Source of the DNA: Candidatus Omnitrophota bacterium
Lineage (GTDB): Bacteria; Omnitrophota; Gorgyraeia; Gygaellales; Profunditerraquicolaceae
Assembly: GCA_025453445.1 (NCBI GenBank)
Contig: JALOQJ010000005.1
Span: forward strand, 136 to 64,135
DNA: 64,000 bases
Direction: 5' to 3'
Both the position numbers and the translations under genes were made by a program. Of the stretch, positions 2,315 to 24,866 are shown in pieces (the stretch's first letter is position 1; each line of letters starts with the position of its first letter). Under the pieces are notes generated by a model, which had not been told where the DNA came from, made no database searches, and was given only the letters and a program-made list of their open reading frames with translations.

Positions 2315-2317
2315 TTT

Positions 2318-3394
2318 ATGATTTCTCTGGTAATATTTTTATTTGTTTTCGGTATATTGATTCTCGTGCATGAATTCGGGCATTTTATCGTTGCCAAAAA
2401 AGTTGGGGTAAGGGTAGAAAGGTTCTCGTTAGGTTTTGGTAAAGTATTGTTAAGCCGAAAAAGCAAGGGAACAGAATATACCTTGAATGCTCTGCCTCTG
2501 GGGGGCTATGTAAAACTCGCAGGGGATGTCCCGGGTGAATGTTCCGGAAAATCTGATGAATATTTGTCAAAAACTCCGGGTCAGCGCGCGGCAATAATTT
2601 TCTGCGGCCCGCTGGTAAATTATCTATTGGGATTTTTTTGTTTTTGGCTGATATTTTTTACCGGGTATCCGACGCTGACTACTAAAGTTGGCGGCCTGCT
2701 CGATGGTTTTGGCGCAAAAGATGCCGGTGTGCAAATCGGCGATCAGATTATCAGCGTAGACGGCCAAAAGGTGGCTTATTGGGAAGAACTGCAGAAAGCG
2801 ATGCAGGCAAAGGGCAATGTGCCGCAGATGAAATTTTCCATCCTGCGTAACGGCAAAGAAATCGGGCTGGAGATAAAAATTAAAGAAAAAGAAATACAGG
2901 ACTTAATCGGCTCAAAACAGAGTATTGGCTTAATCGGGATTACTCCGGTAGATGAAATTATCACAGTGCGCCATTCTTTTTGGCAATCATGTTTCTTAGG
3001 CATAGAAAAAACCTGGTATTTGACAGAAATGACTTATAAGGCCCTTTGGAGGATGATTACCGGAAGGCTGTCTTTCCGTGATTCAGTTACCGGGCCCTTG
3101 GGGATATTCTATATTACTTCCAAAGCCGCGCATCTGGGGATTATCGCCTTAATCCATCTTATGGCAGTGTTGAATATCAGCCTCGCTATATTTAACCTGT
3201 TGCCTTTGCCGGTATTAGACGGCGGGCATATTTTATTATTGGCAATAGAAAAAATCCGCGGCAGGGCTTTAAGCATAAAAGCCGAACAGGTAGTTACGCA
3301 TTTTGGGTTAACTCTGATTATTACGCTAGCGGTAATTGCTACTTACAACGATATTCTGAAATTTAAAGATAAGATTTTTACTTTTTTAAAATAG
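2318..3394 (+). CDS. rseP: RIP zinc metalloprotease RseP (site-2 protease)
   Basis: HEFGHF zinc motif, one PDZ domain, and an NLLPLPVLDGGH motif near the C-terminus. Confidence 0.85.
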   Translation: MISLVIFLFVFGILILVHEFGHFIVAKKVGVRVERFSLGFGKVLLSRKSKGTEYTLNALPLGGYVKLAGDVPGECSGKSDEYLSKTPGQRAAIIFCGPLVNYLLGFFCFWLIFFTGYPTLTTKVGGLLDGFGAKDAGVQIGDQIISVDGQKVAYWEELQKAMQAKGNVPQMKFSILRNGKEIGLEIKIKEKEIQDLIGSKQSIGLIGITPVDEIITVRHSFWQSCFLGIEKTWYLTEMTYKALWRMITGRLSFRDSVTGPLGIFYITSKAAHLGIIALIHLMAVLNISLAIFNLLPLPVLDGGHILLLAIEKIRGRALSIKAEQVVTHFGLTLIITLAVIATYNDILKFKDKIFTFLK

Positions 3395-3397
3395 CAT

Positions 3398-4459
3398 ATG
3401 AATTTAGCCCGCAAGAAAACAAAAACAATCAAAATTGGCAATGTTCTAATTGGCGCAGCTCATCCGGTAGCTATTCAGTCGATGGTAAAATGTAAAACCA
3501 GCGATAGCGGTAGGGCGATAAAAGAAATCAATTATCTGGAGCAATGTGGCTGCGAAATTGTGCGTTTGGCAGTAAAAGACAGCGCGGATGCTTCTAGTTT
3601 CAGGCAGATTAAGCGCAAGACTAATATCCCGCTGGTTGCTGATATTCATTTTGATTGGAGCCTTGCCTTAGAGGCAATAGAAAACGGTGCGGATAAAATC
3701 AGGCTAAACCCGGGGAACATTTATAAAAGAAGCCAGATACAGGAAATTGTTACGGCTTTAAAAATTGCCAAAATACCTTTACGTATTGGTTTAAATTCAG
3801 GCTCTGTGAAAAATATCTCCGGCCGGAAGATGAGCATGGCTGATAAGTTGGTGAACAGCGCTTTGGATTATATAAAGATTGTTGAGAAGATGGGGTTTAA
3901 TAATCTGGTAATTTCCCTGAAGGCGTCTACTGTAGTGGATACAGTGGATGCTTACCGTAAGATAAGCAAGTGTTGCGATTATCCGCTTCATTTAGGGGTT
4001 ACAGCAACCGGTTTGCCTGGTGAGGGAGCGATTAAGTCGGCAATAGCAATTGGCGCTTTGCTATTGGAGGGAATCGGTGATACAATAAGGATATCGCTTA
4101 CTGCCCGGCCCGAGGAAGAAATTAGGGTTGCCCGGGCTGTACTGCGTGCTTTGGATTTAAGGCATTTTGGCCCGGAAGTGATCAGCTGTCCTACTTGTGG
4201 CCGTTGCGAAGTGGATTTAGTAGGCTTAGTTCAGGAAATAGAGCAAAAAATTATCCAGGTCAAAGGAAACAAACCATTAAAAATAGCAGTAATGGGTTGC
4301 GTAGTCAATGGCCCAGGCGAAGCCAAGGAAGCGGATATCGGGGTTGCTTTCGGCAAAAATGACGGCCTTTTGTTTAAAAAAGGCAAAGCTGTGCGCAAAG
4401 TATTGTTTACGCAAAGCGCCGCTGCTTTATTGAAAGAGATAAAAAGAGCCAATGGTTGA
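3398..4459 (+). CDS. ispG: 4-hydroxy-3-methylbut-2-en-1-yl diphosphate synthase (GcpE)
   Basis: TIM-barrel N-terminus and a C-terminal CPTCGRC...GCVVNGPGE iron-sulfur motif typical of IspG. Confidence 0.95.
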   Translation: MNLARKKTKTIKIGNVLIGAAHPVAIQSMVKCKTSDSGRAIKEINYLEQCGCEIVRLAVKDSADASSFRQIKRKTNIPLVADIHFDWSLALEAIENGADKIRLNPGNIYKRSQIQEIVTALKIAKIPLRIGLNSGSVKNISGRKMSMADKLVNSALDYIKIVEKMGFNNLVISLKASTVVDTVDAYRKISKCCDYPLHLGVTATGLPGEGAIKSAIAIGALLLEGIGDTIRISLTARPEEEIRVARAVLRALDLRHFGPEVISCPTCGRCEVDLVGLVQEIEQKIIQVKGNKPLKIAVMGCVVNGPGEAKEADIGVAFGKNDGLLFKKGKAVRKVLFTQSAAALLKEIKRANG

Positions 4460-5716: not shown

Positions 5717-6967
5717 ATGCTTTGGTCAAAAACTTTTATTCCCACTTTAAAAGAGACGCCTCAGGAAGCAGAATCAATAAGCCATCAGTTAATGCTCAAG
5801 GCTGGGCTGGTGCGCATGCTGATGGCAGGGGTTTATTCTTATTTGCCGTTGGGCCTGCGTGTTCTGAATAATATCGAAAAAATAATCCGTGCGGAGATGG
5901 AAGCAGCGGGTGCTGCGGAATTATTACTGCCTGCTCTGCAACCGAAAGAATTATGGGTTAAGTCCGGCCGCGATACGGTAATTGCCGATGTGATGATTGA
6001 GTTTATTGATCGCCGCGGTAGGCATATCTGCCTCGGGCCCACGCATGAAGAAGTAATTACTGAATTGGTTAAATCCTATGTTTCCAGCTATCGGCAGCTG
6101 CCTATGGTGCTATACCAAATTCAGGCTAAATTCCGCGATGAAATCAGGCCGCGTTTTGGCCTGGTGCGTTCCTGCGAATTTATTATGAAGGACGCCTATA
6201 GTTTTGATAAAGACCAGCAGGGGCTGGATAAAAATTATCAGGCAATGCATCAGGCATACAAAAGGATATTTAGCAGGTGTGGTTTAGATTTTTTAACCGT
6301 AGCTGCAGATTCCGGAGTAATGGGCGGCAGTGTTTCGCATGAATTTATGGTTGGGGCATCTGACGGTGAAGATATTGTCCTGCTTTGCCCGCAATGCAAA
6401 CAGGCAAAGCCGTTCAAAGATGAAACTAAATTGACTTGCCCGGAATGCGGAATTATCCTGCAAAAAACTAACACCCTGGAAGTCGGCCACATTTTTCAGC
6501 TGGGCACGAAATACAGCGCCGCATTAGGAGCGAATTTTGTTGATGATAAAGGTAAGCAGCAGCCTGTTATTATGGGTTGTTACGGCATAGGCGTTTCGCG
6601 CCTGATTGCCGCGATTATCGAGCAGAACCATGATAAAGACGGAATTATCTGGCCTGCAGAAATCAGCCCTTATCAGGTAAGTATTATTGCGCTTGATGTT
6701 ACGGATGAATTAATTTTTAAGAAAGCACTGGAAATATATGAAAAACTTAAAGCTGAAGGTATAGAAGTCCTGCTTGATGACCGTGATGAACGCGCAGGGG
6801 TGAAATTTAAAGACGCGGATTTACTCGGTATTAGCACGCAGATTGTTATCGGCAGGGAATTCTCGAAAACCGGCGCTATCGAGCTGAAGATGCGCCGTGA
6901 TAATAATAAAATTACAGGTAAAGCCGAAGAAATTTTAGGGAAATTAAAGGAAGTTTTGCATGGATAA
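5717..6967 (+). CDS. proS: Prolyl-tRNA synthetase, bacterial type but without the INS editing domain; a Zn-ribbon mini-insert replaces it
   Basis: The N-terminus is MLWSKTFIPTLKETPQEAESISHQLML. Class II motifs and a C-terminal anticodon-binding domain are present. The protein is only 416 aa, and CPQCKQ...CPECG sits where the INS domain normally lies. Confidence 0.9.
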   Translation: MLWSKTFIPTLKETPQEAESISHQLMLKAGLVRMLMAGVYSYLPLGLRVLNNIEKIIRAEMEAAGAAELLLPALQPKELWVKSGRDTVIADVMIEFIDRRGRHICLGPTHEEVITELVKSYVSSYRQLPMVLYQIQAKFRDEIRPRFGLVRSCEFIMKDAYSFDKDQQGLDKNYQAMHQAYKRIFSRCGLDFLTVAADSGVMGGSVSHEFMVGASDGEDIVLLCPQCKQAKPFKDETKLTCPECGIILQKTNTLEVGHIFQLGTKYSAALGANFVDDKGKQQPVIMGCYGIGVSRLIAAIIEQNHDKDGIIWPAEISPYQVSIIALDVTDELIFKKALEIYEKLKAEGIEVLLDDRDERAGVKFKDADLLGISTQIVIGREFSKTGAIELKMRRDNNKITGKAEEILGKLKEVLHG

Positions 6968-8693: not shown

Positions 8694-10886
8694 ATGGTAA
8701 CAAAGCCTAAAAAAATAAAACCTAAAGTTAAAAAAATTTCAGCGGTAAAGCACAAGCCGGAAGCAAAAAAAGCTGTTCCTAGGGCCAGCCGGCCCAAGCC
8801 AACAGCTAAGCCCCAGGTTAAGCCTAAGCTGGAAAAAATAATAAAGTCAACGAAGCCAAAAGTTATGCCTGTTGTTAAGCCGCAGGTTAAACCGGAAATT
8901 AAAGTTGCAGTGAAGCCTGAAGTGAAGGTTGCATTAAAACAGGAAGTGAAGCATGTAGTAAGGCCGGAAGTTAAACCTGAACTGAAGCCGGTAGTTAAAC
9001 CGGTAATAAAACCAGAAGTAAAGCCGGAAATAAAATCAGAGCATAAACCGGAAATAAAGCCTGTAATTAAGCCGGAAATTAAACCGGAGATCAAGCAGGA
9101 ATTTAAGCAGCAGGTTAAAGAGACGGCACATTTAAAAGAATTGGTATTAAAATTTCCGGTTATTGTAAAAGACCTTGCCATAAAGCTTCAGGAGAAACCA
9201 TCGATATTAATCAAAATGCTCATGGATATGCGCATTATGGCAGGGATTAATCAGGCATTAGATGAGGAAGCAGCAGCAAAGATCTGTGAAAAATTCGGTT
9301 TTAAAATCATACCAGCGCCCGGTGAAGAAGAATTGGCATTACGTGTGCATCAGGAAGCGGATAAGCCGCAGTCTCTAAAAGCGCGGCCGCCGATAGTTAC
9401 TTTTATGGGCCACGTTGATCATGGAAAGACTTCGCTTCTGGATGCGGTAAGAAAAACCAAAGTTGCTGAGTCAGAACACGGCGGGATTACTCAGCATATC
9501 GGCGCCTACCGCGTGCATCTTCCCCACGGGGATATTACATTTTTAGATACGCCGGGGCATGAGGCGTTTACTGCTATGCGTGCGAGAGGAGCGAAGATTA
9601 CCGATATCGTAGTTTTGGTTGTTGCCGCGGACGATGGGATCATGCCTCAGACTAAAGAAGCAATTGATCATGCGCGCGCCGCCGGTGTTTCTATTATTGT
9701 TGCTGTAAACAAAATCGATAAGCCGCAGGCAGATCTTGACCGGGTAAAAAAACAACTTTCAGAAATGGATCTTTTAGCTGAAGATTGGGGTGGTAAAACC
9801 ATTACTGTCCCGGTTTCTGCTAAGACCGGTGCGGGTATAGATAATTTGCTGGAAATGATTATTCTGGAATCTCAGATGCTGGAATTAAAAGCCAATCCGG
9901 ATCGTGCAGCCAGGGGTGTTGTGGTAGAAGCAAAGATGTCTAAGGGGAAGGGGCCGGTGGCTACTCTATTAGTGCAGAATGGCACATTGCATTTAAATGA
10001 GTTTATTATCGTAGGCAATTTCCTTGGCAGGGTGCGCGCGATGTTTAATCATCTTGGCCAGGCTGTAGCTGAAGCAGGCCCGGCTTATCCGGTGGAGGCA
10101 TTGGGTTTGTCGGGAGTTCCTGATGCAGGCGAGCAATTTTTTGTGATTAGCGATGAGAAACAGGCAAAGGAAATAATTGCTTTGCGCCAAGAGCAGGAAA
10201 AACAGGCTCAGGTCAAGCAGGTTAAGCGTATCAATCTTGAAGAATTACATGCGCAGATTAAAGAAGGGAAAATCAAGGATCTGAAGCTGATTATTAAGGC
10301 AGATGTGCAGGGTTCTTTGGCGGCAATCAAAGATACGCTCGACAAAACCAATACTTCGGAAATTAAGTTAGATATTATCCATGAAGGCGTGGGTAATATT
10401 AATTCGTCGGATGTAATCCTGGCAGTTGCCTCTAACGCCCTGATTTTAGGTTTTAATGTAGTACAGGATGATTTAGCTAAAGTAATATCGGCAAAAGAAG
10501 GCGTGGATGTGCGCGTCTACAATATTATTTATGAATTAGCTAATGATATTAAAGCGGCAATTGAAGGCATGCTTGAGCCAAAAATTAAGAAAGTATTCCT
10601 GGGGAGAGTAGATATAAGGCAGGTTTTTAAGCTTTCTCGTTCAGGCATGGTAGCCGGCTGCTTTGTGAGTAAAGGTAAGATTACCCGGCAGGCGGTAATT
10701 AACCTGGTGCGTAACGGCGAGCTGATTTTTGAAGGTAAAATCAGTAACCTGAAACGTTTTAAAGATGATGTAAAAGAAGTGGCTGAGGGTTTTGAATGCG
10801 GGATTACTCTTAGCGGTTTTGACAGTATGCAGGCAGGCGATGTTATTGAGGCATATGATATAGAGAAAGTGGCGCGTAAGCTATGA
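8694..10886 (+). CDS. infB: Translation initiation factor IF-2 with a repetitive KP-rich N-terminal region
   Basis: G-domain motifs [20 protein letters not shown] and NKIDK. The N-terminus carries tandem [10 protein letters not shown]-type repeats. Confidence 0.95.
8874..9114 (+). repeat. In-frame tandem repeats inside infB, encoding (V/I)KPE(V/I)KP units
   Basis: The motif gttaaaccggaa / gtgaagcctgaa recurs with a 15-18-nt period. This is low-complexity coding sequence in the IF2 N-domain. Confidence 0.7.
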
Positions 10887-12645: not shown

Positions 12646-13678
12646 TACAGATCCGCTTAAAACCGCAAGCCCGGGGCAGGAGACTGAAGAGGATGTAGTA
12701 TTGAATATTTCTCTACGGCCGCAGAAGTTCACTGAATTTACCGGCCAAAAAGAAATTATTGATAACCTCAAAATCTGCCTTGCCGCAGCAAAAGAAAGAA
12801 AAGAGCCTTTAGAGCATATATTGCTTTCCGGGCCTCCGGGTTTGGGCAAGACTTCTTTATCACATATTATCGCCCATGAAATGGGCACAAAAATTACCGC
12901 TACCTCTGGCCCTGCGATTGAACGCGCCGGAGATTTAATCGGGATTCTTACTAATTTAGAAAAAGGCGATATCCTCTTTATTGATGAAATCCACCGGCTT
13001 TCCAAAGTGGTGGAAGAATTTTTGTACCCGGCAATGGAAGGTTTTCAGATTGATTTTGTCATTGATAAAGGCCAGTTTGCCCGGACAATTAAGTTCAACC
13101 TTAAGCCTTTTACTTTAATTGGTGCTACTACCCGCACCGGCCTCTTAGCTGCGCCGTTAAGGGCGAGGTTTGGTATTTTCCACCATCTGGATTTTTATAA
13201 AATAGAAGACCTGGCTGTAATTATTAAGCATTCCGCGAAAATTTTAGGTGTCGAGATAGATAACGAAGCTGCAGATGAAGTGGCCCGGCGTAGCCGCGGC
13301 ACGCCCCGCATTGCCAATCGGCTTTTACGCAGGATCCGGGATTATGCGCAGGTAAAGAAAATCGGCAAAATCAATCTAACAGTTGCTTCAGAAACGCTGG
13401 ATGAATTAGGTATTGATAAAGCAGGCCTCGATGATATAGACCGGCGGGTATTAAAAACAATTTTGCAAAATTACAGCGGCGGGCCGGTAGGCGTGGAGTC
13501 TCTGGCTGCTACTTTAAACGAAGAAACTGATACTATCGTGGATACAGTTGAGCCTTTTTTATTAAAAGCAGGCTATATTAAGCGCACTTCCCGCGGCAGG
13601 CTGGCTACCAAATTATCCTTCGAGCATTTCGGGTTAAAATACAATAAAGAGAAGCAGGAAGAGTTGTTTGAGAAGTAG
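12599..13678 (+). CDS. ruvB: Holliday junction ATP-dependent DNA helicase RuvB
   Basis: LRP...F..F.GQ N-terminal motif, Walker A GPPGLGKTSL, sensor and arginine-finger regions. No ruvA is adjacent, and the true start may lie downstream of the long overlap with scpA. Confidence 0.9.
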   Translation: MTNEGRLKLLKGRSNNTDPLKTASPGQETEEDVVLNISLRPQKFTEFTGQKEIIDNLKICLAAAKERKEPLEHILLSGPPGLGKTSLSHIIAHEMGTKITATSGPAIERAGDLIGILTNLEKGDILFIDEIHRLSKVVEEFLYPAMEGFQIDFVIDKGQFARTIKFNLKPFTLIGATTRTGLLAAPLRARFGIFHHLDFYKIEDLAVIIKHSAKILGVEIDNEAADEVARRSRGTPRIANRLLRRIRDYAQVKKIGKINLTVASETLDELGIDKAGLDDIDRRVLKTILQNYSGGPVGVESLAATLNEETDTIVDTVEPFLLKAGYIKRTSRGRLATKLSFEHFGLKYNKEKQEELFEK

Positions 13679-13699
13679 TTTCGCGTCTGCCTTGTCCAG

Positions 13700-13800
13700 T
13701 TTCTCGCTCATTGATATTGAGCGGGTCCTGTCTGCCGATCCACCTCGCCGTCCTCGCTATTCGCTGCGGGCGGCAAGGTCTTCGTCTCGGCAGTCACCCG
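13700..13800 (+). repeat. Diverged, truncated family-2-like GC-rich element
   Basis: It shares gagcgggtcctgtc, cctcgccgtcctcgct and cagtcacccgcaag with the 270-nt family-2 repeats at 21484 and 22851, in the same orientation. Confidence 0.4.
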
Positions 13801-13805
13801 CAAGC

Positions 13806-13837
13806 AATGAATTCGCTCGAAATCCGTCATATTCATT
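13806..13837. repeat. Mini-hairpin whose arms reproduce the family-1 terminal inverted repeats (aatgaattcg...catattcatt)
   Basis: AATGAAT and ATTCATT arms flank a 12-nt spacer and are near-identical to the AATGAATCTG / CAGATTCATT ends of the 237-nt element. Confidence 0.5.
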
Positions 13838-13879
13838 TAAAGCTTATATTAGCGGTTGGCTTGGCTGGGATTTCGAGTA

Positions 13880-13919
13880 CCACAGAGTAGCTGACGTTTA
13901 AACGTCAGCTACTCTGTGG
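13880..13919. repeat. 40-bp perfect palindrome (ccacagagtagctgacgttt|aaacgtcagctactctgtgg)
   Basis: Read directly from the sequence. The two 20-nt arms are perfect reverse complements with no loop. Confidence 0.95.
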
Positions 13920-13937
13920 ATAACTTTCAAGATTCCG

Positions 13938-13961
13938 CAAAAACACAGTCAAGACCCACGC
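13938..13961 (+). repeat. 21-nt motif copy (caaaaacacagtcaagacccacgc)
   Basis: It matches AAAACACAGACAAGACACACG with 2 mismatches, and the same motif recurs at 14228, 21500(rc), 22866(rc) and 23945. Confidence 0.8.
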
Positions 13962-13976
13962 TATGATAGGTTTTTA

Positions 13977-14213
13977 AATGAATCTGGCGCGTTTTCGAGC
14001 GAATGTTGATTTTAGGCAAAGCATGCTCGAGTATTTTTGGGAATTCCGATGCCCCGCGAATGCGGGGCAATATCGGAACGGCGATGCTGTTTGAGGACAT
14101 TTTGCGTATAGCGCAAAATGGCCGAGTTCAGCAGCCGCCAAAAATACGAGAGACCTTTGCCGGCCCCGAAGGGGCAAAATCGACTTTGAGCGAGAAAATG
14201 CGGCAGATTCATT
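13977..14213 (+). repeat. Family-1 GC-rich structured element, copy 1 (candidate ncRNA or MITE-like element)
   Basis: It is bounded by a 10-bp inverted repeat, AATGAATCTG...CAGATTCATT, that extends to a roughly 19-bp closing helix. Internal hairpins are ccccgc-gaat-gcgggg, cattttgcg-tata-cgcaaaatg and gccccgaaggggc. It is GC-rich against an AT-rich background. The second copy is at 23709. Confidence 0.8.
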
Positions 14214-14227
14214 AAGAGATACTTTAG

Positions 14228-14251
14228 AAAACACAGACAAGACACACGCGG
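14228..14251 (+). repeat. 21-nt motif copy (aaaacacagacaagacacacgcgg)
   Basis: Consensus copy, located 14 nt after the family-1 element and 15 nt before the queH start. Confidence 0.8.
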
Positions 14252-14265
14252 GACTATATAAACCT

Positions 14266-14799
14266 ATGAAACTATTACTACATATCTGTTGTGCGCCGTG
14301 CATGATTTATCCGCTTGAGAGCCTGTACAAGCAAAAAACTGAGGTGACGGGATTTTTTTATAATCCTAATATTTGTCCGTTACCTGAATATCAGAAACGA
14401 AGGCAGGCGATAGTAGATTTATCGACTGAGAATAAATGTGAAGTAATTTATTCTGAATACCTGCCGTCGGAATTCATGCAGGCAGTAGAGCTGAATAAAG
14501 AGCAGCCGGTCAGGTGTCTAATCTGCTGGCGGCTGCGGCTTGAGAAAACAGCTCAGGCTGCCAAGGACAAGGGATTTGATTCTTTTTCTACCACGCTCTT
14601 AGTCAGCCCTTATCAGGATCAGGAAGCGCTTAAAAAAATAGGTGAAGATATTGCCGAACAAGCCGGCGTGTATTTTCATTATGAAGATTTCCGGCCGGGG
14701 TTCAGGAAGGCGCATAATTTAGCGAAAGAAAAAGGAATCTATTGCCAGAATTACTGCGGCTGTATGTATTCGTATATGGAAAGATGCGAAAAAAAGTAA
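14266..14799 (+). CDS. queH: Epoxyqueuosine reductase QueH (DUF208)
   Basis: HICCAPC motif at the N-terminus and CxxC later in the protein. queA and tgt lie downstream. Confidence 0.8.
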   Translation: MKLLLHICCAPCMIYPLESLYKQKTEVTGFFYNPNICPLPEYQKRRQAIVDLSTENKCEVIYSEYLPSEFMQAVELNKEQPVRCLICWRLRLEKTAQAAKDKGFDSFSTTLLVSPYQDQEALKKIGEDIAEQAGVYFHYEDFRPGFRKAHNLAKEKGIYCQNYCGCMYSYMERCEKK

Positions 14800-15920
14800 A
14801 GATTTTTAAATTTGCTATATTTTTCATTTTTTGTTTTTTAGTCCCCGCACTTTATGCCCAAGCTGGTGAGGTTGTCCGTGTTGCCATTATTCAGGATGCG
14901 CAATCTCTGAGCCTGAAGGTGAAAGGGTTTTACGAAGTTGTTGATCCCAAGGATAATAAAGTTTTATATCGCGGCAAAGACTTATTAACCACTGTCACCG
15001 TCTATAAAAATGGTATTTTACTTGGTAAAATGGTATCTCGCTTAGATAAACTTTTGGTAAGAGCGGAGGATCCTTATGCAGTAATGATAAATGGCCGCAA
15101 GTTCAGGGGTGGTATCACGCTGGCTAAAAAAGATAATTTGCATTTATTAGTAGTGAATAGTATTGAGCTTGAGGATTATATTAAGGGTATTTTATACCAT
15201 GAAGCATCGCACTATTGGCCGCTTGAAGCATTAAAAGCGCAGGCAATTGCAAGCCGCAGTTACGCTGTTTATCAGAAGCAGGCAAGTAGTAGCCGCGATT
15301 TTGACCTGACCAGTGATGTGTATTCTCAGGTTTATGGCGGACGGACTTCTGAGCGTTACCGTACTAACATAGCAGTGGATGAGACAAAGGGAATGTTGTT
15401 AATGTACCAGGGTAAAATCCTGCCAGCCTATTTTCATGCTACCTGTGCGGGACATACTGAAGATGCAAACAGGCTTTGGAATATTAATATTGCGCCTTTA
15501 AAAGGGGTGGTTTGTAATTTTTGCCAGGAATCGCCGCATTTTTTCTGGCATGTGGTTTTAAGTTTAGAAGAAATTGAGAAAAAATTAAAGGGCACTAATT
15601 ATGCTATGAATAATATAGAAGGAATTATTGTTGTGGATAGGGATCAGTCGAATCGTATCATTAACCTGAAGCTATTCAACAAAGATAAGTCTAAGAAAAT
15701 CCCGGCAAAAGATTTCCGGAGTTTAATCGGAGCAGATATCATCAGAAGCACGAATTTTCAGCTGGATATTGCCGGTAAAGACGTTGTAATCGAAGGCAAG
15801 GGTTGGGGGCATGGCGTGGGTTTATGCCAGTGGGGGGCTTATTTTATGGCTAAAAACGGCTCCACTTATCAGGATATCCTCGCATATTATTATCCGGGCA
15901 GCGTAGTTAATTCCCAATGA
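14784..15920 (+). CDS. SpoIID/LytB-domain protein (amidase enhancer family), secreted
   Basis: Signal peptide after the M at 14784, and the C-terminal WGHGVGLCQWGA SpoIID signature. Confidence 0.8.
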   Translation: MRKKVKIFKFAIFFIFCFLVPALYAQAGEVVRVAIIQDAQSLSLKVKGFYEVVDPKDNKVLYRGKDLLTTVTVYKNGILLGKMVSRLDKLLVRAEDPYAVMINGRKFRGGITLAKKDNLHLLVVNSIELEDYIKGILYHEASHYWPLEALKAQAIASRSYAVYQKQASSSRDFDLTSDVYSQVYGGRTSERYRTNIAVDETKGMLLMYQGKILPAYFHATCAGHTEDANRLWNINIAPLKGVVCNFCQESPHFFWHVVLSLEEIEKKLKGTNYAMNNIEGIIVVDRDQSNRIINLKLFNKDKSKKIPAKDFRSLIGADIIRSTNFQLDIAGKDVVIEGKGWGHGVGLCQWGAYFMAKNGSTYQDILAYYYPGSVVNSQ

Positions 15921-16906
15921 AATTAGCAGAATTCGATTATCATTTACCCAAAGAATTAATTGCGCAATATCCTCTGAAGGAGCGCGATGAAGCACGGCTT
16001 TTAGTCGTGCATCGTGCTGACGGAAAAATCGAACATTGCTCTTTTAAGGATTTTACCGGATATTTATCCGCAGATGACCTGTTGGTTTTAAATAATACAA
16101 AGGTTCTTGCCAGCCGCCTGGAAGGAAAGCGTAAAACCGGCGGCAGGGTGGAAGTTTTACTTCTAAAGAGAAATGCGGATTCTATATTTCATGCTTTAAT
16201 TAAGCCGGCTAGGCTGAAATTAAACGAAGAAATATTATTTAATCATGGCAGCCTTAAGGCTGTGATTGTTGGCCGCCAAGAGATACGCTTTAGCGATTGC
16301 CAGACAGGTAAAATTTATGATTACGGCCAGATGCCGCTTCCGCCGTATATCAAAAGAAAACCCGAAGCTTTAGATAGCGTTTATTATCAGACGATTTATG
16401 CAAAGCATGCCGGAGCAGTGGCTTCTCCTACCGCAGGCCTGCATTTTACCGATGAAATACTTAAAAATATTGCGAGTAAAGGCATCAATATTGCTTATGT
16501 TACTTTGCATGTAGGCCATGGTACATTCAAGCCGGTTGTAGCGGAAGATATTAAAGAACATAAAATGGAAGGCGAAGATTTTTTTATTGATGATCAGGCG
16601 ATCGGCCTAATAAATCAAGCCCGTGAAAAAAAAGGAAAAATTTTCAGCGTTGGCACTACCTCTAGCCGGGCGCTGGAAACATTAGCAGGCGGTAAAAAAG
16701 AAGGATCAACTAATCTTTTTATCTATCCGGGCTATAAATTTAAAATGGTTGATTGCCTGTTGACTAATTTTCATTTGCCGCGCACGACTTTATTTATGCT
16801 GGTCTGTGCATTCTCCGGCGAGAAGCTCGCTAAAGAGGCTTATGCAAAGGCGATTGAACAAAAATACCGTTTTTATAGCTATGGCGATGCGATGCTGATT
16901 CTTTAA
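15917..16906 (+). CDS. queA: S-adenosylmethionine:tRNA ribosyltransferase-isomerase
   Basis: MKLAEFDYHLPKELIAQYP N-terminus typical of QueA, and the full length of 329 aa. Confidence 0.9.
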   Translation: MKLAEFDYHLPKELIAQYPLKERDEARLLVVHRADGKIEHCSFKDFTGYLSADDLLVLNNTKVLASRLEGKRKTGGRVEVLLLKRNADSIFHALIKPARLKLNEEILFNHGSLKAVIVGRQEIRFSDCQTGKIYDYGQMPLPPYIKRKPEALDSVYYQTIYAKHAGAVASPTAGLHFTDEILKNIASKGINIAYVTLHVGHGTFKPVVAEDIKEHKMEGEDFFIDDQAIGLINQAREKKGKIFSVGTTSSRALETLAGGKKEGSTNLFIYPGYKFKMVDCLLTNFHLPRTTLFMLVCAFSGEKLAKEAYAKAIEQKYRFYSYGDAMLIL

Positions 16907-18735
<1,829 letters not shown>

Positions 18736-18743
<8 letters not shown>

Positions 18744-19092
18744 AATCAAAATGATTGAACAGGAAGTGACAAAAAAAGAAATGCCGAAGTTTAATGTCGG
18801 CGATACGGTAAAGGTGTTGACTAAGATCCCTGAAGGCCCGGATAAGATCCGCCTGCATCCTTTTGAGGGCATAGTAATTGCCAAGCAGGGTAGTGGCGTG
18901 CGCACATATTTTACGGTGAGAAAAGTTTCTTACGGCGAAGGTATTGAGCGGGTTTTCCCTTTATATTCTCCGAATATCGAACGCATTGAAATTCTTCGTT
19001 CTGGTAAAGTACACAGGGCTAAACTTTATTATTTAAGGGGTAAAGTCGGTAAACAAGCCACGAAGATCGAATCGCAGGACGGAACAAAATAA
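18736..19092 (+). CDS. rplS: 50S ribosomal protein L19
   Basis: Sequence and size match L19, and the gene follows trmD. Confidence 0.95.
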
Positions 19093-19105
19093 AACTTTTT
19101 TAAGA

Positions 19106-19708
19106 GTGCTCTATTACGAGCGTTATTTTAAGAAAAAAGGTTTTGATTTAATTATCGGGGTTGATGAGGCAGGCCGCGGCCCGCTGGCTGGCCCGGTAGT
19201 GGCAGGGGCAGTGCTTTTAAAAAGTACGCGTTTTAAAAATCGTATTGACGATTCCAAAAAATTAACCGCCCTGCAAAGAGAAAAAGCTTATCCAGAAATT
19301 GTCGCTAAGTCTGTTTTTGGCCTGGGGATTATAGGCGAAGATGAAATTGACCGCGTGAATATCCTTGTAGCAACAGGCATGGCAATGGAGGAGGCGATAC
19401 GGTCTTTGTTAAAGAAGCTCGATCCCTACAAAAAAAATAATATCCATGTCCTTGTTGACGGCGATGTTAAGCTTAATTTAGGCCTTCCCTATACTAATAT
19501 TATCAGAGGCGATCAAAAATCAAAAAGCATTGCCTGCGGATCTATCATGGCAAAAGTCACCCGGGACAGGATGATGGTTTTTTATGACACGCTCTATCCA
19601 GAGTATGGTTTTCTGCAGCATAAGGGATATCCTACAAAAACACATAAAGCGGCAATAAAAAAATTCGGCCTTTCCCGGATACACAGGGCCACATTTTCCA
19701 GTGTCTGA
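19106..19708 (+). CDS. rnhB: Ribonuclease HII
   Basis: GVDEAGRGPLAGPVV active-site motif. Confidence 0.9.
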   Translation: MLYYERYFKKKGFDLIIGVDEAGRGPLAGPVVAGAVLLKSTRFKNRIDDSKKLTALQREKAYPEIVAKSVFGLGIIGEDEIDRVNILVATGMAMEEAIRSLLKKLDPYKKNNIHVLVDGDVKLNLGLPYTNIIRGDQKSKSIACGSIMAKVTRDRMMVFYDTLYPEYGFLQHKGYPTKTHKAAIKKFGLSRIHRATFSSV

Positions 19709-20081
19709 CGGGCATTTATCCTTAGGAAAGAGCGGTGAAGATATAGCAGTGGATTTTTTAAAGGACAACGGCTATAAAATTATAGCCAGGAATTATAAGA
19801 TCAAGCTAGGCGAGATTGATATTATTGCTGAAGATAAAGGTACCCTCTGTTTTGTGGAGGTGAAAACCAGAAGCTCTGATAAATTCGGGCTGCCTGTTGA
19901 GGCAGTTAAAAAAGCAAAACAACAACAGATCTCCCGGGTTGCCCTTATGTACCTGAAGGACAAAAGTTTATTTGATAAAAAATCCCGTTTTGATGTTGTT
20001 TCAATTATAAATTCAGCTGAAACACAGAAAATAGATTTAATTAAAGACGCCTTTGAATTAAGCCATCAATATGGCTACTAA
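19701..20081 (+). CDS. yraN: UPF0102 family endonuclease YraN
   Basis: Size and the ...CFVEVKTR motif are typical of the YraN family, and it follows rnhB as in many genomes. Confidence 0.75.
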   Translation: MSDGHLSLGKSGEDIAVDFLKDNGYKIIARNYKIKLGEIDIIAEDKGTLCFVEVKTRSSDKFGLPVEAVKKAKQQQISRVALMYLKDKSLFDKKSRFDVVSIINSAETQKIDLIKDAFELSHQYGY

Positions 20082-20102
20082 AAATTCTTTAGGAGAGCAT
20101 AG

Positions 20103-20663
20103 ATGTATAAAGAAGCTACTTTAAAAAAATACCTTGATGATTTGGCGGCTAAATTGCCTGCTCCCGGAGGCGGATCAGCTGCAGCAATGAATGCGGCAAT
20201 GGGTGTGGCTTTAGTGAGCATGGTGGTGAATTTTACTTTAGGTAAGCCAAAATACGCCCAATATGACACAGAGTTAAAGCATATCCTTAAAAGGGCGGAA
20301 GATCTTAGGAAAGAATTCTTACATTTAGTAGATTTAGATGTTACGGCGTACAAAAGTAAAAATATGCGCGATGCTTTGAATGTACCGTTTATGCTTGCCC
20401 GGCTCAGCTTTGAGGCAATAAAATTATGCCCTGTCTTGATTAAAAAAGGCAATATTAATTTGATTAGCGATGTGGTAGTAGCGGCGATTTTCTTAGAGTC
20501 AGCTTTTACCAGTGCCTATTGTAATGTGGATATAAACTTAAAAATTTTAGATGATAAAAAGCTTGCTTCTGTCATTAGGAAAGAATTAAGCGCGAAAGAA
20601 AAAAGAATCAAAAAAATCAGAAAACTCGTGGAGGAGAAAGTTGGCAAAATTATTAGAGGGTAA
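20103..20663 (+). CDS. Cyclodeaminase/cyclohydrolase family protein (FTCD C-terminal domain; methenyl-THF cyclohydrolase-like)
   Basis: The LPAPGGGSAAAMNAAMGVALVSMVVNFTLGK motif is characteristic of the FTCD_C / FchA family. Confidence 0.7.
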   Translation: MYKEATLKKYLDDLAAKLPAPGGGSAAAMNAAMGVALVSMVVNFTLGKPKYAQYDTELKHILKRAEDLRKEFLHLVDLDVTAYKSKNMRDALNVPFMLARLSFEAIKLCPVLIKKGNINLISDVVVAAIFLESAFTSAYCNVDINLKILDDKKLASVIRKELSAKEKRIKKIRKLVEEKVGKIIRG

Positions 20664-21483
20664 ACCGCTTGCGGAAAAAATTAAAGAAGAGATAAAAGCA
20701 CAAATTCAGGCATTGGGGATTAAGCCTGTTTTGGCTAGTGTTTTAGTAGGCGAGAATGCCGGTGCTGAAGCCTATGTCAAATCACAAAGCAAAGCCGCAG
20801 AAAATTTAGGGATTGTTTATCAATTTCATAAGCTTGATGCAGCTACAACGGAAGTTGCCTTAATTGAATTTATCAAGAAACTAAATAGCGATAAAAATGT
20901 TAACGGCATTATTATTCAGATGCCGCTTCCAGCGCAAATAGATTATAAAAAAATCTCTCAATTTATTTCTGCGGAAAAAGATGTTGAAGGCATGCATCCG
21001 GCAAATATAGGTAAAATAGTATTCGGTAAGGCGAAGATTCTACCCTGTACGCCGGCGGCAGTAATGGAGCTTTTAAATAGCACGGGCGTTGATTTATACG
21101 GTAAAGAGGTAGTGATTGTCGGCCATAGCGAAATTGTAGGCAAGCCTTTAGCGCTTTTGTTGCTTGAAAAATTTGCTACTGTTACAGTAGCTCATATCGG
21201 TACCAGCAAAGCTGGCAAATTAGAAGAGCATATTAAGAAAGCTGAAGTATTAATTGTGGCAGTGGGTAAGGCGGGGTTAATCAAAGGTGATTTAGTTAAA
21301 GAAGGCGCAATTGTCATTGATGTTGGGATCAATAGGGTGGATGGTAAGATTGTCGGCGATGTGGAGTTTGAAGCGGCAGAGAAGAAAGCAAGCTACATTA
21401 CACCTGTTCCCGGCGGTGTCGGTCCACTGACTGTAACTATGTTAATGCGTAATTTAGTCGAAGCTGCGAAATTACAAAAATAA
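20641..21483 (+). CDS. folD: Bifunctional methylene-THF dehydrogenase / methenyl-THF cyclohydrolase
   Basis: Length is 280 aa. The FolD motifs VGxxxxSxxYxxxK, PGGVGP and TVTxxH-like are present. Confidence 0.95.
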   Translation: MAKLLEGKPLAEKIKEEIKAQIQALGIKPVLASVLVGENAGAEAYVKSQSKAAENLGIVYQFHKLDAATTEVALIEFIKKLNSDKNVNGIIIQMPLPAQIDYKKISQFISAEKDVEGMHPANIGKIVFGKAKILPCTPAAVMELLNSTGVDLYGKEVVIVGHSEIVGKPLALLLLEKFATVTVAHIGTSKAGKLEEHIKKAEVLIVAVGKAGLIKGDLVKEGAIVIDVGINRVDGKIVGDVEFEAAEKKASYITPVPGGVGPLTVTMLMRNLVEAAKLQK

Positions 21484-21753
21484 GTTCTTTGGATTTTTTC
21501 CGTGTGTCTTGTCTGTGTTTTTTCGGGTAGTTTACGAGGGGGCGGGTCCTGTCGAGGCATATTTCTTGCAGGAACGCACGATTTTCCCCGGCGTGGAAAA
21601 TCGCGCTCGGCTCCTCGGCCTCGCTCGTCCCAGACAAGATTAGTGCGGGGGACACCGTGCCCGCTCGGCCTGCGGACGTCCTGCTCGAATCGCGCCTCGT
21701 CAATCCGCTTCGACAGGATAGAAGTCGCGCTCAAAACCGGCCAAGTCACCCGC
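21484..21753 (+). repeat. Family-2 GC-rich structured element, copy A
   Basis: Roughly 95% identical to 22851..23120. It starts immediately after the folD stop codon. Its left end carries the reverse complement of the 21-nt motif at 21500-21521. It contains the hairpin cgattttcc-acgccgg-ggaaaatcg. Confidence 0.85.
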
Positions 21754-21769
21754 TAAGACTGGTTTAAAT

Positions 21770-22345
21770 ATGAAAAATAAAAATGTCTATATAATCGCAG
21801 GGCCGAATGGATCGGGTAAGACAACCTTTGCAAGGATGTTTTTGCCTGATTATGTAAGTTGCCCAAATTTTGTAAATGCCGATCTTATTGCTCAAGGGCT
21901 GGCTCCTTTTGAGCCGCGCAGCGCGGCGATTAAAGCGGGTAAACTTGTTTTGCAGCAAATTCATGAATTTGCCGGGCGTAATGTTGATTTTTCTTTTGAA
22001 ACAACTCTATCCGGTAAATCTTACGCGAATTTACTAAGTGAATTAAAACTAAAAGGCTATGCAGTATATCTTTTTTTTCTTTGGATTCCCAATACGGAGT
22101 TAGCAATAGCCCGAATTAAAGACAGAGTTAAGGAAGGCGGACATAATGTACCGGCTGAAGATGTTAGGCGGCGTTTCCGTCGTGGTCTCAATAATTTTTT
22201 CAAATTATATGAGCCGTTGCTTGATTCGTGGATGCTGTTTGATAATTCTCAGGCTAAGCCGGTCTTGATAGCAAAAAGGCGTAATGGCCACATGGAAATA
22301 ATAAATGAAAAATTATTTGAAGCAATTCAGGAATCTTTGAGGTGA
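21770..22345 (+). CDS. Zeta-toxin/AAA_33-like P-loop kinase (COG4185-like), candidate toxin
   Basis: MKNKNVYIIAGPNGSGKTTFARMF Walker A near the N-terminus and a roughly 190-aa zeta-like fold. Confidence 0.7.
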   Translation: MKNKNVYIIAGPNGSGKTTFARMFLPDYVSCPNFVNADLIAQGLAPFEPRSAAIKAGKLVLQQIHEFAGRNVDFSFETTLSGKSYANLLSELKLKGYAVYLFFLWIPNTELAIARIKDRVKEGGHNVPAEDVRRRFRRGLNNFFKLYEPLLDSWMLFDNSQAKPVLIAKRRNGHMEIINEKLFEAIQESLR

Positions 22346-22348
22346 TGT

Positions 22349-22501
22349 ATGAAAAAAAGAATGTCCGTAGAAGATAAGGCTGAAGCAGCGCTGAAGGCAG
22401 CGGTAAGAAAAGTTGTAGAAGAGCATAAGAAGACCGGCCGGCCTTTAGCAATATGGGAGAATGGTAGGGTTATGCAAATTTCTCCGTATAAGATAAAGTA
22501 G
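22349..22501 (+). CDS. Small basic 50-aa protein (MKKRMSVEDKAEAALKAAVRKVVEEHKKTGRPLAIWENGRVMQISPYKIK), candidate partner or antitoxin
   Basis: Not in the ORF table because it is under 60 aa. A GAGGTGA RBS lies 5 nt upstream, and the ATG is 4 nt after the kinase stop. Confidence 0.45.
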   Translation: MKKRMSVEDKAEAALKAAVRKVVEEHKKTGRPLAIWENGRVMQISPYKIK

Positions 22502-22519
22502 GTGTTAAGTTATAGATAG

Positions 22520-22849
22520 ATGAAAACAATTGTTCTTTTGACTATATCAAATGTGTTTATGACTTTTGCCTGGTATGGGCATCTGAAGTTTAAAAATTCG
22601 CCGCTCTGGATTGTAGTTTTAATCAGCTGGGGCATTGCTTTTGCCGAGTATTGTTTTCAGGTGCCGGCAAACCGTATCGGCTCTTATAAATTTAGCGCGG
22701 CACAGTTAAAGACAATTCAGGAAATAATTACTCTTGTAGTATTTGCAGTATTTTCTGTGCTCTATCTTAAAGAAGAATTCAAATGGAATTATGCTGTAGG
22801 TTTCTTGTGTATCTTACTAGCGGTGTTTTTTATATTTAAGAAGTGGTAG
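22520..22849 (+). CDS. DUF486/DMT-superfamily small membrane protein
   Basis: 109 aa with four predicted TM helices and a pattern resembling DUF486. Confidence 0.6.
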   Translation: MKTIVLLTISNVFMTFAWYGHLKFKNSPLWIVVLISWGIAFAEYCFQVPANRIGSYKFSAAQLKTIQEIITLVVFAVFSVLYLKEEFKWNYAVGFLCILLAVFFIFKKW

Positions 22850-22850
22850 A

Positions 22851-23120
22851 GTTCTTTGGATTTTTTCCGTGTGTCTTGTCTGTGTTTTTGCGGGTAGTTT
22901 ACGAATGGGCGGGTCCTGTCGAGGCATATTTCTCGCAGGAACGCACGATTTTCCCCGGCGTGGAAAATCGCGCTCGGCTCCTCGGCCTCGCTCGTCCTCT
23001 AAAGTTTATTTAGGGAGGACACCGTGCCCGCTCGGCCTGCGGACGTCCTGCTCGAATCGCGCCTCGTCAACCCGCTTCGACAGGATAGAAGCCGCGCTCA
23101 AAACCGGCCAAGCCACCCGC
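22851..23120 (+). repeat. Family-2 GC-rich structured element, copy B
   Basis: Near-identical to copy A except for an 18-nt equal-length substitution block (cagacaagattagtgcgg versus tctaaagtttatttaggg). It starts 1 nt after the stop of the upstream gene and carries the motif reverse complement at 22866-22887. Confidence 0.85.
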
Positions 23121-23184
23121 GAGAAATGAACTATTTTAGATAAGTACTCAACCAAAATAGCAAATTTGATCAAAGAGGGATAAA

Positions 23185-23688
23185 ATGGAAATCGAAGTTA
23201 TTAAGATAATCGTTTATCCGGTATTAGTTACTTTTCTTACGATAACGATAGCTAAATTTCATTTTGAAAAAGATAGAAAAGTAGAATATCTTAGGGCTAA
23301 AGATAAAGTAGCGATAGATTTAATAAGGTGTCTTTGTAATATGCTTACTCACATGTGGGAAATGGTGAATATCGATCGCTGGGTGGCTAATGGTAATTCT
23401 AATCCAGATCTTCCTCAGAAACGACTACAAGCTAGAAATAATTTTTACCAATCTAGGAATGATACTACTATCTTATTAGGACTTATGGGGTTGTATTACG
23501 GTACTAAAATAGTGGATAGGATATCCCAGCTTATATCTGATTTAAACGATATGGTGAATAGTAATAATTTTTCCGCTTTTGATAAGTGGGATAATTTTAG
23601 AAGAAAAAAGTTGTTACCCATTCTAAATAAAGTTCATAAGGAATTAAAGTATACCGTATTTGATAGACCGTTTTGGGATTTAGGTTAG
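23185..23688 (+). CDS. Hypothetical membrane-anchored protein, very AT-rich gene
   Basis: N-terminal TM helix (IIVYPVLVTFLTITIA). Codon usage is far more AT-rich than in neighbouring genes. Confidence 0.5.
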   Translation: MEIEVIKIIVYPVLVTFLTITIAKFHFEKDRKVEYLRAKDKVAIDLIRCLCNMLTHMWEMVNIDRWVANGNSNPDLPQKRLQARNNFYQSRNDTTILLGLMGLYYGTKIVDRISQLISDLNDMVNSNNFSAFDKWDNFRRKKLLPILNKVHKELKYTVFDRPFWDLG

Positions 23689-23708
23689 AGTAGTTTTGGT
23701 GTTTGATA

Positions 23709-23937
23709 AATGAATCTGGAGCGTTTTCGAGCGAATGTCGATTTTAGGCAAAGCATGCTCGAGTATTTTTGGAAATTCCGATGCCCCGCGAATGCGGGGC
23801 AATATCGGAACGGCGATGCTGTTCGAGGAGCATTTGCTAGAGCAAATGCGACGAGTTCAGCAGCCGCCAAAAATACGAGAGACCTTTGCCGGCCCGCCGA
23901 AGGCGAGGCAAAATCGACTCTGAGCGAGAAAACCGAC
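23709..23937 (+). repeat. Family-1 GC-rich structured element, copy 2
   Basis: It has the same AATGAATCTG...CAGATTCATT ends and the same hairpins as copy 1, with compensatory changes: gcatttgc-taga-gcaaatgc, and cgcc-gaa-ggcg. Confidence 0.8.
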
Positions 23938-23944
23938 AGATTCA

Positions 23945-23968
23945 TTAAAGCGTAAATACACAGACAAG
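23945..23968 (+). repeat. 21-nt motif copy (aaatacacagacaagacaaacgcg)
   Basis: Located 7 nt after family-1 copy 2 and 29 nt before the metF TTG start. Confidence 0.75.
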
Positions 23969-23996
23969 ACAAACGCGAAACAGTAAGGAGTGAAAA

Positions 23997-24866
23997 TTGA
24001 ATTTTAAAGAGAAGATACAGACTGGGAAATTTGTGGTGACGTCCGAGATTGGCCCGCCTAAGGGGGTTGAGACAAAGACTCTTTTGGAGGATGCGGAATT
24101 AATTAGGGGCAAGGTTGATGGGATTAATGTTACTGATTTACAAAGCTCAGTAATGCGCTTAGGTTCACTTGCTGTTTGCGCCTTGTTGAAACAAGGTGGC
24201 TTTGAGCCGATATTCCAGTTAACTTGCCGTGATAGGAATCGCCTTGCTTTACAGTCAGATGTTTTATCAGCTGCAGCACTCGGGATTGAAAATCTCTTAC
24301 TTCTTACTGGCGATCATCCGGCAATGGGCGATCACCCGGAAGCAAAGCCGGTTTTTGACCTTGATTCAGTGCAATTATTGCAGGTAGTAAAGAAGCTGCA
24401 GGAAGGCGCTGACATGAAGGGTAATAAATTAATTGGCGAGCCGCCGAAATTCTGCATGGGCGCTGTGGTTAATCCCGGAGCAGACCCATTGGAGCCGCAA
24501 ATAATAAAGATGGAGAAAAAAATTGCTGCTGGTGCGGAATTTTTCCAGACACAGGCAGTTTATGACATAAAAACTTTCGAGAACTTTTTAAATAAAACCA
24601 AGCATTTAAAAACTACGGTTATGGCAGGTATAGTTTTATTAAAATCCGCAGGTATGGCGCGCTACATGAATAAGAATGTCGCCGGAGTATTTGTGCCGGA
24701 TAATTTAATCAAGGAGATGGAAGAGACAAAAGACAAACAAGCTAAGTCTGTGGAAATTGCTGCGCGCTTAATCAAAGAATTAAAGCCAATGTGTCAGGGG
24801 ATTCATATTATGCCTATCGGCTGGGATAAGGTTGTACCGAGAGTTTTAGAGGCAGGTGGATTATAA
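23997..24866 (+). CDS. metF: Methylenetetrahydrofolate reductase (MetF-like)
   Basis: TTG start with an AAGGAG RBS. VTSEIGPPKG and the TIM-barrel MTHFR pattern are present. Confidence 0.8.
   Translation: MNFKEKIQTGKFVVTSEIGPPKGVETKTLLEDAELIRGKVDGINVTDLQSSVMRLGSLAVCALLKQGGFEPIFQLTCRDRNRLALQSDVLSAAALGIENLLLLTGDHPAMGDHPEAKPVFDLDSVQLLQVVKKLQEGADMKGNKLIGEPPKFCMGAVVNPGADPLEPQIIKMEKKIAAGAEFFQTQAVYDIKTFENFLNKTKHLKTTVMAGIVLLKSAGMARYMNKNVAGVFVPDNLIKEMEETKDKQAKSVEIAARLIKELKPMCQGIHIMPIGWDKVVPRVLEAGGL

Follow-up and report, generated by a model that had tools for sequence, protein, structure and literature searches.

What is the 21-nt sequence AAAACACAGACAAGACACACG, which recurs beside structured, repeated DNA in the genome of a Candidatus Omnitrophota bacterium? 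We addressed this question in one continuous stretch of 64,000 nt, referred to here as the window. A search allowing up to three mismatches found the 21-mer at exactly five sites (Table 1), whereas 100 dinucleotide-preserving shuffles yielded no matches. This bore out the five sites listed in an earlier, sequence-only reading of the same DNA. The last copy, which that reading had put at 23945-23968, lies about 10 nt further to the right and carries two mismatches that had gone unmentioned. The copies cluster within 10 kb of the 64 kb examined. Two of them sit 18-21 nt 5' of start codons, two others are antisense and 3' of genes, and the three exact copies belong to different element types. Three functions had been offered for the motif: a recombination or insertion site, a processing or termination signal, or an operator shared by the downstream genes.

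Table 1. Motif copies, terminal arms and inserted modules in the window (positions are those of the window)
Feature	Position	Strand	Basis or remark
Outer-element left arm, diverged	13679-13707	+	Profile match; begins directly after the ruvB stop codon
Reversed remnant, F1-type shell around a GC-rich core closed by GCGGGT/ACCCGC	13710-13838	-	Reverse complement of L012 9785-9945 by direct reading
Mini-element left arm	13849-13877	+	Profile match
Perfect 40-nt palindrome (CCACAGAGTAGCTGACGTT/TAAACGTCAGCTACTCTGTGG), mini-element core	13880-13919	.	Direct reading and folds
Mini-element right arm	13935-13963	+	Holds the 2-mismatch motif 13940-13960; motif search and profile
Motif copy	13940-13960	+	2 mismatches
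F1 copy 1	13975-14216	+	Fold z-score -10.6; 95% identical to copy 2
Outer-element right arm	14224-14256	+	Holds the exact motif 14228-14248; motif search, fold, duplex test, profile
Motif copy	14228-14248	+	Exact
F2 copy 1 end: 16-nt leader GTTCTTTGGATTTTTT, then arm	21484-21526	-	Arm holds the exact motif 21501-21521; directly after the folD stop codon
Motif copy	21501-21521	-	Exact
F2 copy 1 body, 62% GC	21527-21726	-	Repeat finding and composition
F2 copy 1 other arm, diverged GCGCTCAAAACCGGCCAAGTCACCCGCTAA	21727-21756	+	End alignment and profile
F2 copy 2 end: leader, then arm	22850-22893	-	Arm holds the exact motif 22868-22888; directly after the DMT_6 stop codon
Motif copy	22868-22888	-	Exact
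F2 copy 2 body	22894-23093	-	96-97% identical to copy 1 except one replaced hairpin loop
F2 copy 2 other arm, diverged	23094-23123	+	End alignment and profile
F1 copy 2	23707-23948	+	Repeat finding, fold, consensus structure
Solo right arm	23950-23982	+	Holds the 2-mismatch motif 23955-23975; just 5' of the MTHFR ribosome-binding site; repeat finding and profile
Motif copy	23955-23975	+	2 mismatches

The genomic setting was assessed from the coding content of the window. A Candidatus Omnitrophica MAG encodes a protein 100% identical to the product of the MTHFR gene (23997-24866), and hundreds of relatives of this product at 85-97% identity are labelled Omnitrophota. In a greedy map of open reading frames (ORFs) across the 64-kb window, the plus strand carried nearly all ORFs and the gaps between them were mostly shorter than 30 nt. 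The few minus-strand ORFs were without a Pfam match, or lay within the elements or within likely plus-strand genes. GC skew was positive across the whole window (1-64000). In a genome so compact and co-directional, the inserted blocks are conspicuous: they are among its few long gaps, between ruvB and queH, folD and a zeta-like gene, DMT_6 and a gene for a 167-aa protein, and the latter gene and MTHFR. Elsewhere in the window, a 730-aa ORF (8694-10886) contained in-frame tandem repeats of 12 and 24 nt (AAGCCGGAAATTAAA-like) at 8854-9119, coding for K-P-E-rich peptide repeats.

We compared these gaps with the same gene pairs in related genomes and found an insertion polymorphism. The ruvB stop codon and the queH ATG were 12 nt apart in L016/L017 (MTHFR 89% identical), and the spacing of folD and MTHFR was 5-7 nt in L018/L019 (MTHFR 90%) and L024 (89%); these are empty sites. 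The corresponding gaps in the window measured 587 nt for ruvB-queH and ~2.5 kb for folD-MTHFR. Both gaps were filled in the window and in L011/L012 (MTHFR 97%), and the folD-MTHFR gap was also filled in L013 and L025 (MTHFR 92%) and in L017. Since relatives have empty sites, the DNA between these gene pairs in the window, the motif included, is inserted DNA. The motif arrived with this inserted DNA and is therefore not needed for expression of the flanking genes. The folD-MTHFR insertion may represent a single old event, in which case some of the between-genome 'copies' would be orthologues and not independent insertions. In L012, the C-terminus of folD was altered at the element junction (9000-9020), where AGTTCTTT is tandemly duplicated with the stop codon inside the duplication; the insertion therefore reshaped the end of a housekeeping gene. 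The L024 locus, empty between folD and MTHFR, also contained an RVT_1 reverse-transcriptase gene (2305-3603) with large non-coding gaps around it and no link to the motif.

The ends of the inserted DNA proved to be similar to one another. At every filled site, the upstream stop codon was followed directly by the start of the block, a G/T-rich stretch similar to the motif's reverse complement, and many blocks closed with the motif immediately 5' of the downstream ribosome-binding site. We picked 20 termini by eye before any profile search, 10 left and 10 right, the latter reverse-complemented, from the window and from L009, L012, L013, L017, and L025; they aligned over ~30 nt with a mean column identity of 70% and the consensus TTTCGCGTnTGnCTTGTCTGTGTTTTnGCGnG. 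Written inward from the element end, the consensus of this ~30-bp imperfect terminal inverted repeat is TTTCGCGTnTGnCTTGTCTGTGTTTT. A profile search of 174 kb (the window and eight loci) returned 21 sites, all at the edges of inserted blocks, of which 20 were the hand-picked training sequences and one, L012 1568-1596, was new. No profile site fell in coding DNA, in empty-site genomes or in L026 within the 174 kb searched.

By profile, the window contained nine arms, four on the plus strand (13679, 13849, 21497, and 22864) and five on the minus strand (13935, 14224, 21727, 23094, and 23950), and their orientations were properly nested: (( )) ( ) ( ) ). Within each pair, the motif was exact or near-exact in one arm, and the other arm was more diverged. 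The arms were not palindromic and 60-550 nt lay between them. Judged by the alignment of the termini, the motif is probably the better-preserved arm of a ~30-base terminal inverted repeat. The sequence-only reading had described it as present at a single end of most elements, which holds for the better-kept arm; four diverged inverted copies (13679, 13849, 21727, and 23094) had been overlooked. Among the three functions offered, a recombination or insertion site came closest, as the empty orthologous sites and the alignment of element ends put the motif in a terminal inverted repeat.

Nesting was most evident in the ruvB-queH block. The outer element (13679-14256) ends ~10 nt 5' of the queH ATG, and the spacer to the right of its right arm is homologous to the empty-site spacer. 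In the block fold, its left arm pairs with 14237-14256 as a 16-bp stem. Inside the outer element lies a mini-element of 115 bp (13849-13963), delimited by the arms at 13849 and 13935. For the reversed remnant next to the outer left arm, positions 43-125 of this block (B1) also gave a BLAST match to L016 9953-9873. The two forward motif copies around F1 copy 1 are thus the right arms of two nested elements (13849/13935 and 13679/14224). They had been likened to a long duplicated target, but their register relative to the F1 ends does not fit a target duplication: the order is motif-spacer-F1 on the left and F1-spacer-motif on the right. Target duplication was also sought at the other junctions. 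F2 copy 1 had TAA on both flanks, and F2 copy 2 was flanked by AGA and GAG. Where the elements join folD and MTHFR, or ruvB and queH, a TA/TAA duplication may be present, but it is inseparable from the stop codons. No consistent target-site duplication was found at the elements examined. In L010 (GCA_025490975.1), an independent assembly of the same organism, the contig ends just past the 40-nt palindrome, which suggests that this palindrome breaks assemblies.

The two near-identical F1 copies of the window lie 9.7 kb apart. F1 has 26-nt inverted ends of its own (AATGAATCTG...CAGATTCATT; the inverted-end sequence begins AATGAATCTGSCGCRTTTTC...), and these ends and the motif arms look distantly related when read by eye (TCTG.C...TTTTC..GC). 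The F1 fold was very stable, and a consensus structure was common to five copies, with 18 compensatory pairs (changes on both sides) and with G-U accounting for only 0-3 of ~89 pairs. The hairpin loops were of the C(GAA)G, C(GCAA)G, and C(GAAA)G types. In each of the five copies, F1 folded more stably as the element-sense strand, with RNA and DNA parameters alike, and this included the copy of L017, where F1 is reversed relative to the genes. The fold comparison points to a single strand of the element itself as the folded form of F1, and not to a structure of the host mRNA, on the thin evidence of a single reversed copy.

The relation of F1 to the motif varied by context. In the window, each motif copy lay 6-20 nt past the end of a repeated element, in agreement with the claim that the motif always marks an element end; in relatives the claim did not hold throughout, since the MTHFR ribosome-binding site of L025 and L013 directly adjoins an F1-type right end that has no motif. 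The linker between F1 and the motif was 6, 14 or 15 nt long. As this length is variable and F1 is found without the motif, the motif is not part of F1; F1 is a module in its own right, which lies within or next to motif-bounded shells. In L012, the interior of F1 was replaced by a GC-rich core closed by GCGGGT/ACCCGC. L009 carried a 91% identical F1 copy with an exact motif at an unrelated locus, followed by a partial duplicate. The near-identical copies of F1 and F2, the unrelated locus of L009, the reversal in L017, and the core swap in L012 together indicate that modules move or are exchanged.

The F2 copies (21483-21753 and 22850-23120) were 96-97% identical to each other, with a GC content of 62%. 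When the five motif-bearing regions were aligned, the motif was the sole sequence common to the F1 and F2 families, and treatment of F1 and F2 as one family was rejected. F2 was also rejected as a strongly structured RNA, since on neither strand did it fold better than shuffles (z-scores -1.4 and -0.8). Its ORFs of 84-86 aa were discounted as coding sequence, the L012 copy having a large internal insertion.

Divergence of the motif was estimated from orthologous copies. These differed at 3-5 of 21 positions between close relatives, and at 3-4 positions for the arms of L012; the L012 orthologue of the 14228 arm had four differences, with the adjacent linker nearly unchanged. Copies within a genome were more alike than orthologous copies between genomes. 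Such a pattern is predicted by recent spread or gene conversion of a repeat, and not by a pairing-constrained RNA helix or an operator.

The blocks are insertions, their ends are inverted repeats, and their modules nest and occur in both orientations. We consider it likely that they form a family of repeats that is specific to this lineage, nested and non-autonomous, and that resembles MITEs or BOX, Correia and REPIN elements. The arm would be the conserved core of a ~30-bp repeat bounding small non-coding mobile elements in one Candidatus Omnitrophota clade. These elements would have landed in very short gaps between co-directional genes, directly after the stop codon, and would then have served as landing places for F1, for GC-rich cores closed by GCGGGT/ACCCGC, for the perfect palindrome, and for a few cargo genes. 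Repeated landing would have given rise to nested, mosaic blocks. The motif arm may be bound and cut by a transposase or recombinase encoded elsewhere. That enzyme probably works on a folded single strand, because the F1 fold is compensated, has almost no G-U pairs, and is better on one fixed strand of the element.

We searched for such an enzyme and for relatives of the repeats. The ORFs scanned in the window and the fetched loci included no transposase, recombinase or integrase, and those scanned in the window included no TnpB, IscB, RT or RAYT gene. A degenerate form of the motif gave two hits in 596 Gb of genomes, a collection that does not include the source genome; both were motif-only, and their number was about that expected by chance. 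The same motif gave seven hits in a metagenome scan, the sole true relative being L009. In viral contigs, its three hits, all in coding DNA, were due to chance, and no hit was obtained with the F1 end pattern. A search of Rfam over 13500-24100 yielded no hits at gathering scores and none of relevance at E <=10.

The main alternative is that the repeats act as RNA. The arms would pair to close a large structured insert in a polycistronic mRNA, and the motif would be kept for pairing. Such an insert might bring the stop codon near the downstream ribosome-binding site, or might provide a processing or stabilising site of the RNase III type, as reported for Correia and REP elements. In whole-block folds, the motif did lie in the outermost stem of blocks B1, B5, and B10. 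The plus (transcribed) strand was the more stable one in eight of 10 blocks, with 104 G-U pairs compared to 66 on the minus strand, an excess that could also stem from the G+T skew of the plus strand. The elements had no terminators on the plus strand, and some of them provide the downstream Shine-Dalgarno sequence.

Pairing of the arms was compared with shuffles. The far terminal arm was the best duplex partner of the motif in four of 11 cases, which favours the inverted-repeat reading, and the arm-arm duplex was clearly better than shuffles in only two of the 11. Shuffles as good as the real duplex numbered 0/200 in L017 and 1/200 for L012 B5; in the window, they numbered 16/200 for the 14228 motif with its best partner, the 13679 arm, and 11/200 for the 13940 motif with its best partner, the 13849 arm. 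Three motif copies (23955, L012 9959, and L009 1112) were without a local partner arm in the duplex test, the only inverted partners of the 23950 arm being those at 22864 and 21497, across the cargo genes. The exact motif also occurs on either strand relative to transcription. Finally, the 14228 arm in the window equals the family motif and pairs with its own partner less well than its L012 orthologue does with its partner, which argues for homogenisation and not for selection on pairing. We therefore regard a role at the RNA level as unlikely. The narrower proposal of a processing or termination signal is disfavoured by the two antisense copies downstream of genes, by the fast divergence of orthologues, and by a promoter and terminator scan, which showed no enrichment.

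The preferred reading of the blocks as nested, non-autonomous repeats leaves room for cargo, and the gene content between folD and MTHFR differed depending on the genome. The window has a zeta-toxin-like gene with a ~50-aa ORF, DMT_6, and the gene for the 167-aa protein; L012 has a 136-aa ORF, L025 a remnant of that ORF, L013 DMT_6 and a TPR protein, and L017 no gene. The 167-aa and 136-aa proteins are unrelated. In the window, the zeta-toxin/AAA_33-like gene (191 aa) and the ~50-aa ORF that follows it (22349-22501) resemble a toxin-antitoxin pair (21770-22501 in all). This pair and F2 copy 1 separate folD from DMT_6, two genes that are neighbours in L013.

Two related readings give this variable gene content a larger part. 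The first is an undescribed system of hairpin-dependent transposition or recombination of single-strand DNA, in which the inverted arms would be a persistent landing pad in the essential folD-MTHFR operon, repeatedly acquiring modules and cargo. If true, it would be a cassette-capture mechanism distinct from integrons, with a toxin-antitoxin-like pair among its cargo. Only two features might hint at such new transposition biology, namely the compensated fold of F1, specific to one strand, and the turnover of genes between the arms, and we hold this reading to be quite unlikely. The second is capture of cassettes at sites that resemble attC in function: the structured elements would be single-strand recombination sites, and the inverted arms would mark a landing pad for unrelated genes. 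The differences in gene content between the post-folD and pre-MTHFR arms (window, L012, L013, and L017) and the strand-specific folding of F1 with its conserved structure speak for it. It has to contend with the lack of an integrase among the scanned ORFs, with ends (GTTCTTT and TTAGCGG) unlike the attC core sites RYYYAAC/GTTRRRY, and with L013, where DMT_6 follows folD directly with no element between. A test of the link between cargo and cassette did not bear it out: the 167-aa protein has its closest homologue (72% identity, L026) in a defence-island-like array without the motif or a module. Capture of this kind thus appears very unlikely.

The array in L026, another Omnitrophota MAG, consists of co-directional small genes, including methylase-Vsr-HNH, ThsB-TIR with caspase, and HipA. 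This locus also has a different 130-nt intergenic repeat, present twice (6450-6578 and 9838-9967) at 85% identity and unrelated to the motif family.

The remaining two alternatives carry hardly any weight. F1 and F2 as omega-RNA or reRNA-like scaffolds of a TnpB/IscB-type nuclease, with the motif as a common 3' guide, would fit the layout of a ~250-nt structured scaffold followed by ~20 nt of conserved sequence, but this is extremely improbable: no Rfam family matched (IscB/HEARO and IS605-related ones included), no adjacent nuclease gene (TnpB or IscB) and no RT was present among the window ORFs scanned, the supposed guide neither abuts its scaffold (the linker varies from 6 to 15 nt) nor varies (the '3' tail' is identical between copies), F1 is found without the motif, the motif has inverted partners at element ends, and the scaffolds are nested and in both orientations. 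An operator or regulatory site for queH, MTHFR and their neighbours, which the two copies upstream of start codons could bring to mind, has next to no probability either, as relatives express the same genes without the motif, the entire block being absent and the genes nearly abutting, two copies lie antisense where genes end, the motif changes quickly between orthologous sites of close relatives, and no promoter enrichment was seen.

Read as a family of nested, non-autonomous repeats, the blocks explain the GC-rich, structured, and repetitive nature of one rare long intergenic stretch in a very compact Omnitrophota genome. Annotators should treat them as selfish nested repeat DNA and not as riboswitches, small RNAs or operators. 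Such repeats break short-read assemblies, as at the palindrome where the L010 contig ends, and the occupied and empty sites among relatives can serve as a strain-level marker.

We compared the family with known systems; the literature searched contained no description of such repeats or of MITEs in Omnitrophota. As in MITEs, the elements are small (<~600 bp) and without a transposase gene, with units of 115-290 bp whose internal ORFs are not conserved between copies. They also have terminal inverted repeats: 20 ends align at 70% column identity and are nested, and F1 adds its own 26-nt ends. Polymorphism of insertion, a further trait of MITEs, is evident from the empty sites of L016/L017, L018/L019, and L024. 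In Streptococcus pneumoniae, BOX elements lie between genes and are built of non-coding modules (boxA-boxB-boxC), with partly complementary end modules and a variable interior. The present family is likewise intergenic and modular, with conserved, partly complementary ends, no transposase of its own, and co-transcription with the flanking genes. Unlike in BOX, its modules nest, occur in both orientations, and can include cargo genes; there is no sequence similarity, and the host belongs to another phylum.

Correia elements, which are MITEs of Neisseria, and ERIC/IRU elements share with the family terminal inverted repeats of ~26-30 bp, a location within operons, presence/absence polymorphism, and larger variants that arise by internal insertions. 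Correia elements are 100-155 bp long and duplicate TA, and in Neisseria the RNA hairpins of these repeats are RNase III targets. The family described here differs in that no consistent duplication was seen, the arms are unequal (one exact and one diverged), and the interiors are long and GC-rich. REP and REPIN-BIME elements, which are mobilised by RAYT (IS200/IS605-like Y1 transposases), resemble it in their inverted pairs of short conserved sequences and in the possibility of single-strand hairpins. REPINs, too, are found after stop codons within operons and maintain their hairpins by compensatory changes; they leave no target duplications, and no consistent one was seen here. However, palindromic REP units in close inverted pairs were not seen here: the arms are non-palindromic and 60-550 nt apart, compared to a few tens of nt in REPINs, and no RAYT was present among the scanned window ORFs.

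Integron attC sites and CALIN arrays are similar in their strand-specific folding, in a structure that is conserved while the sequence varies, and in the adjoining small cargo genes, which here include the toxin-antitoxin-like pair. They differ in that the R''/R' core sites (RYYYAAC ... GTTRRRY) are absent here, the ends being GTTCTTTGG... and ...CACCCGCTAA, and no IntI was found among the scanned ORFs of the window and loci. The elements are also two to four times longer than attC sites, and they reside within essential housekeeping operons. Membership in any single named family is unproven, and by the sum of these likenesses and differences the motif and its elements most plausibly represent a new, local family within a well-known class of selfish repeats, and not a signal for gene control.
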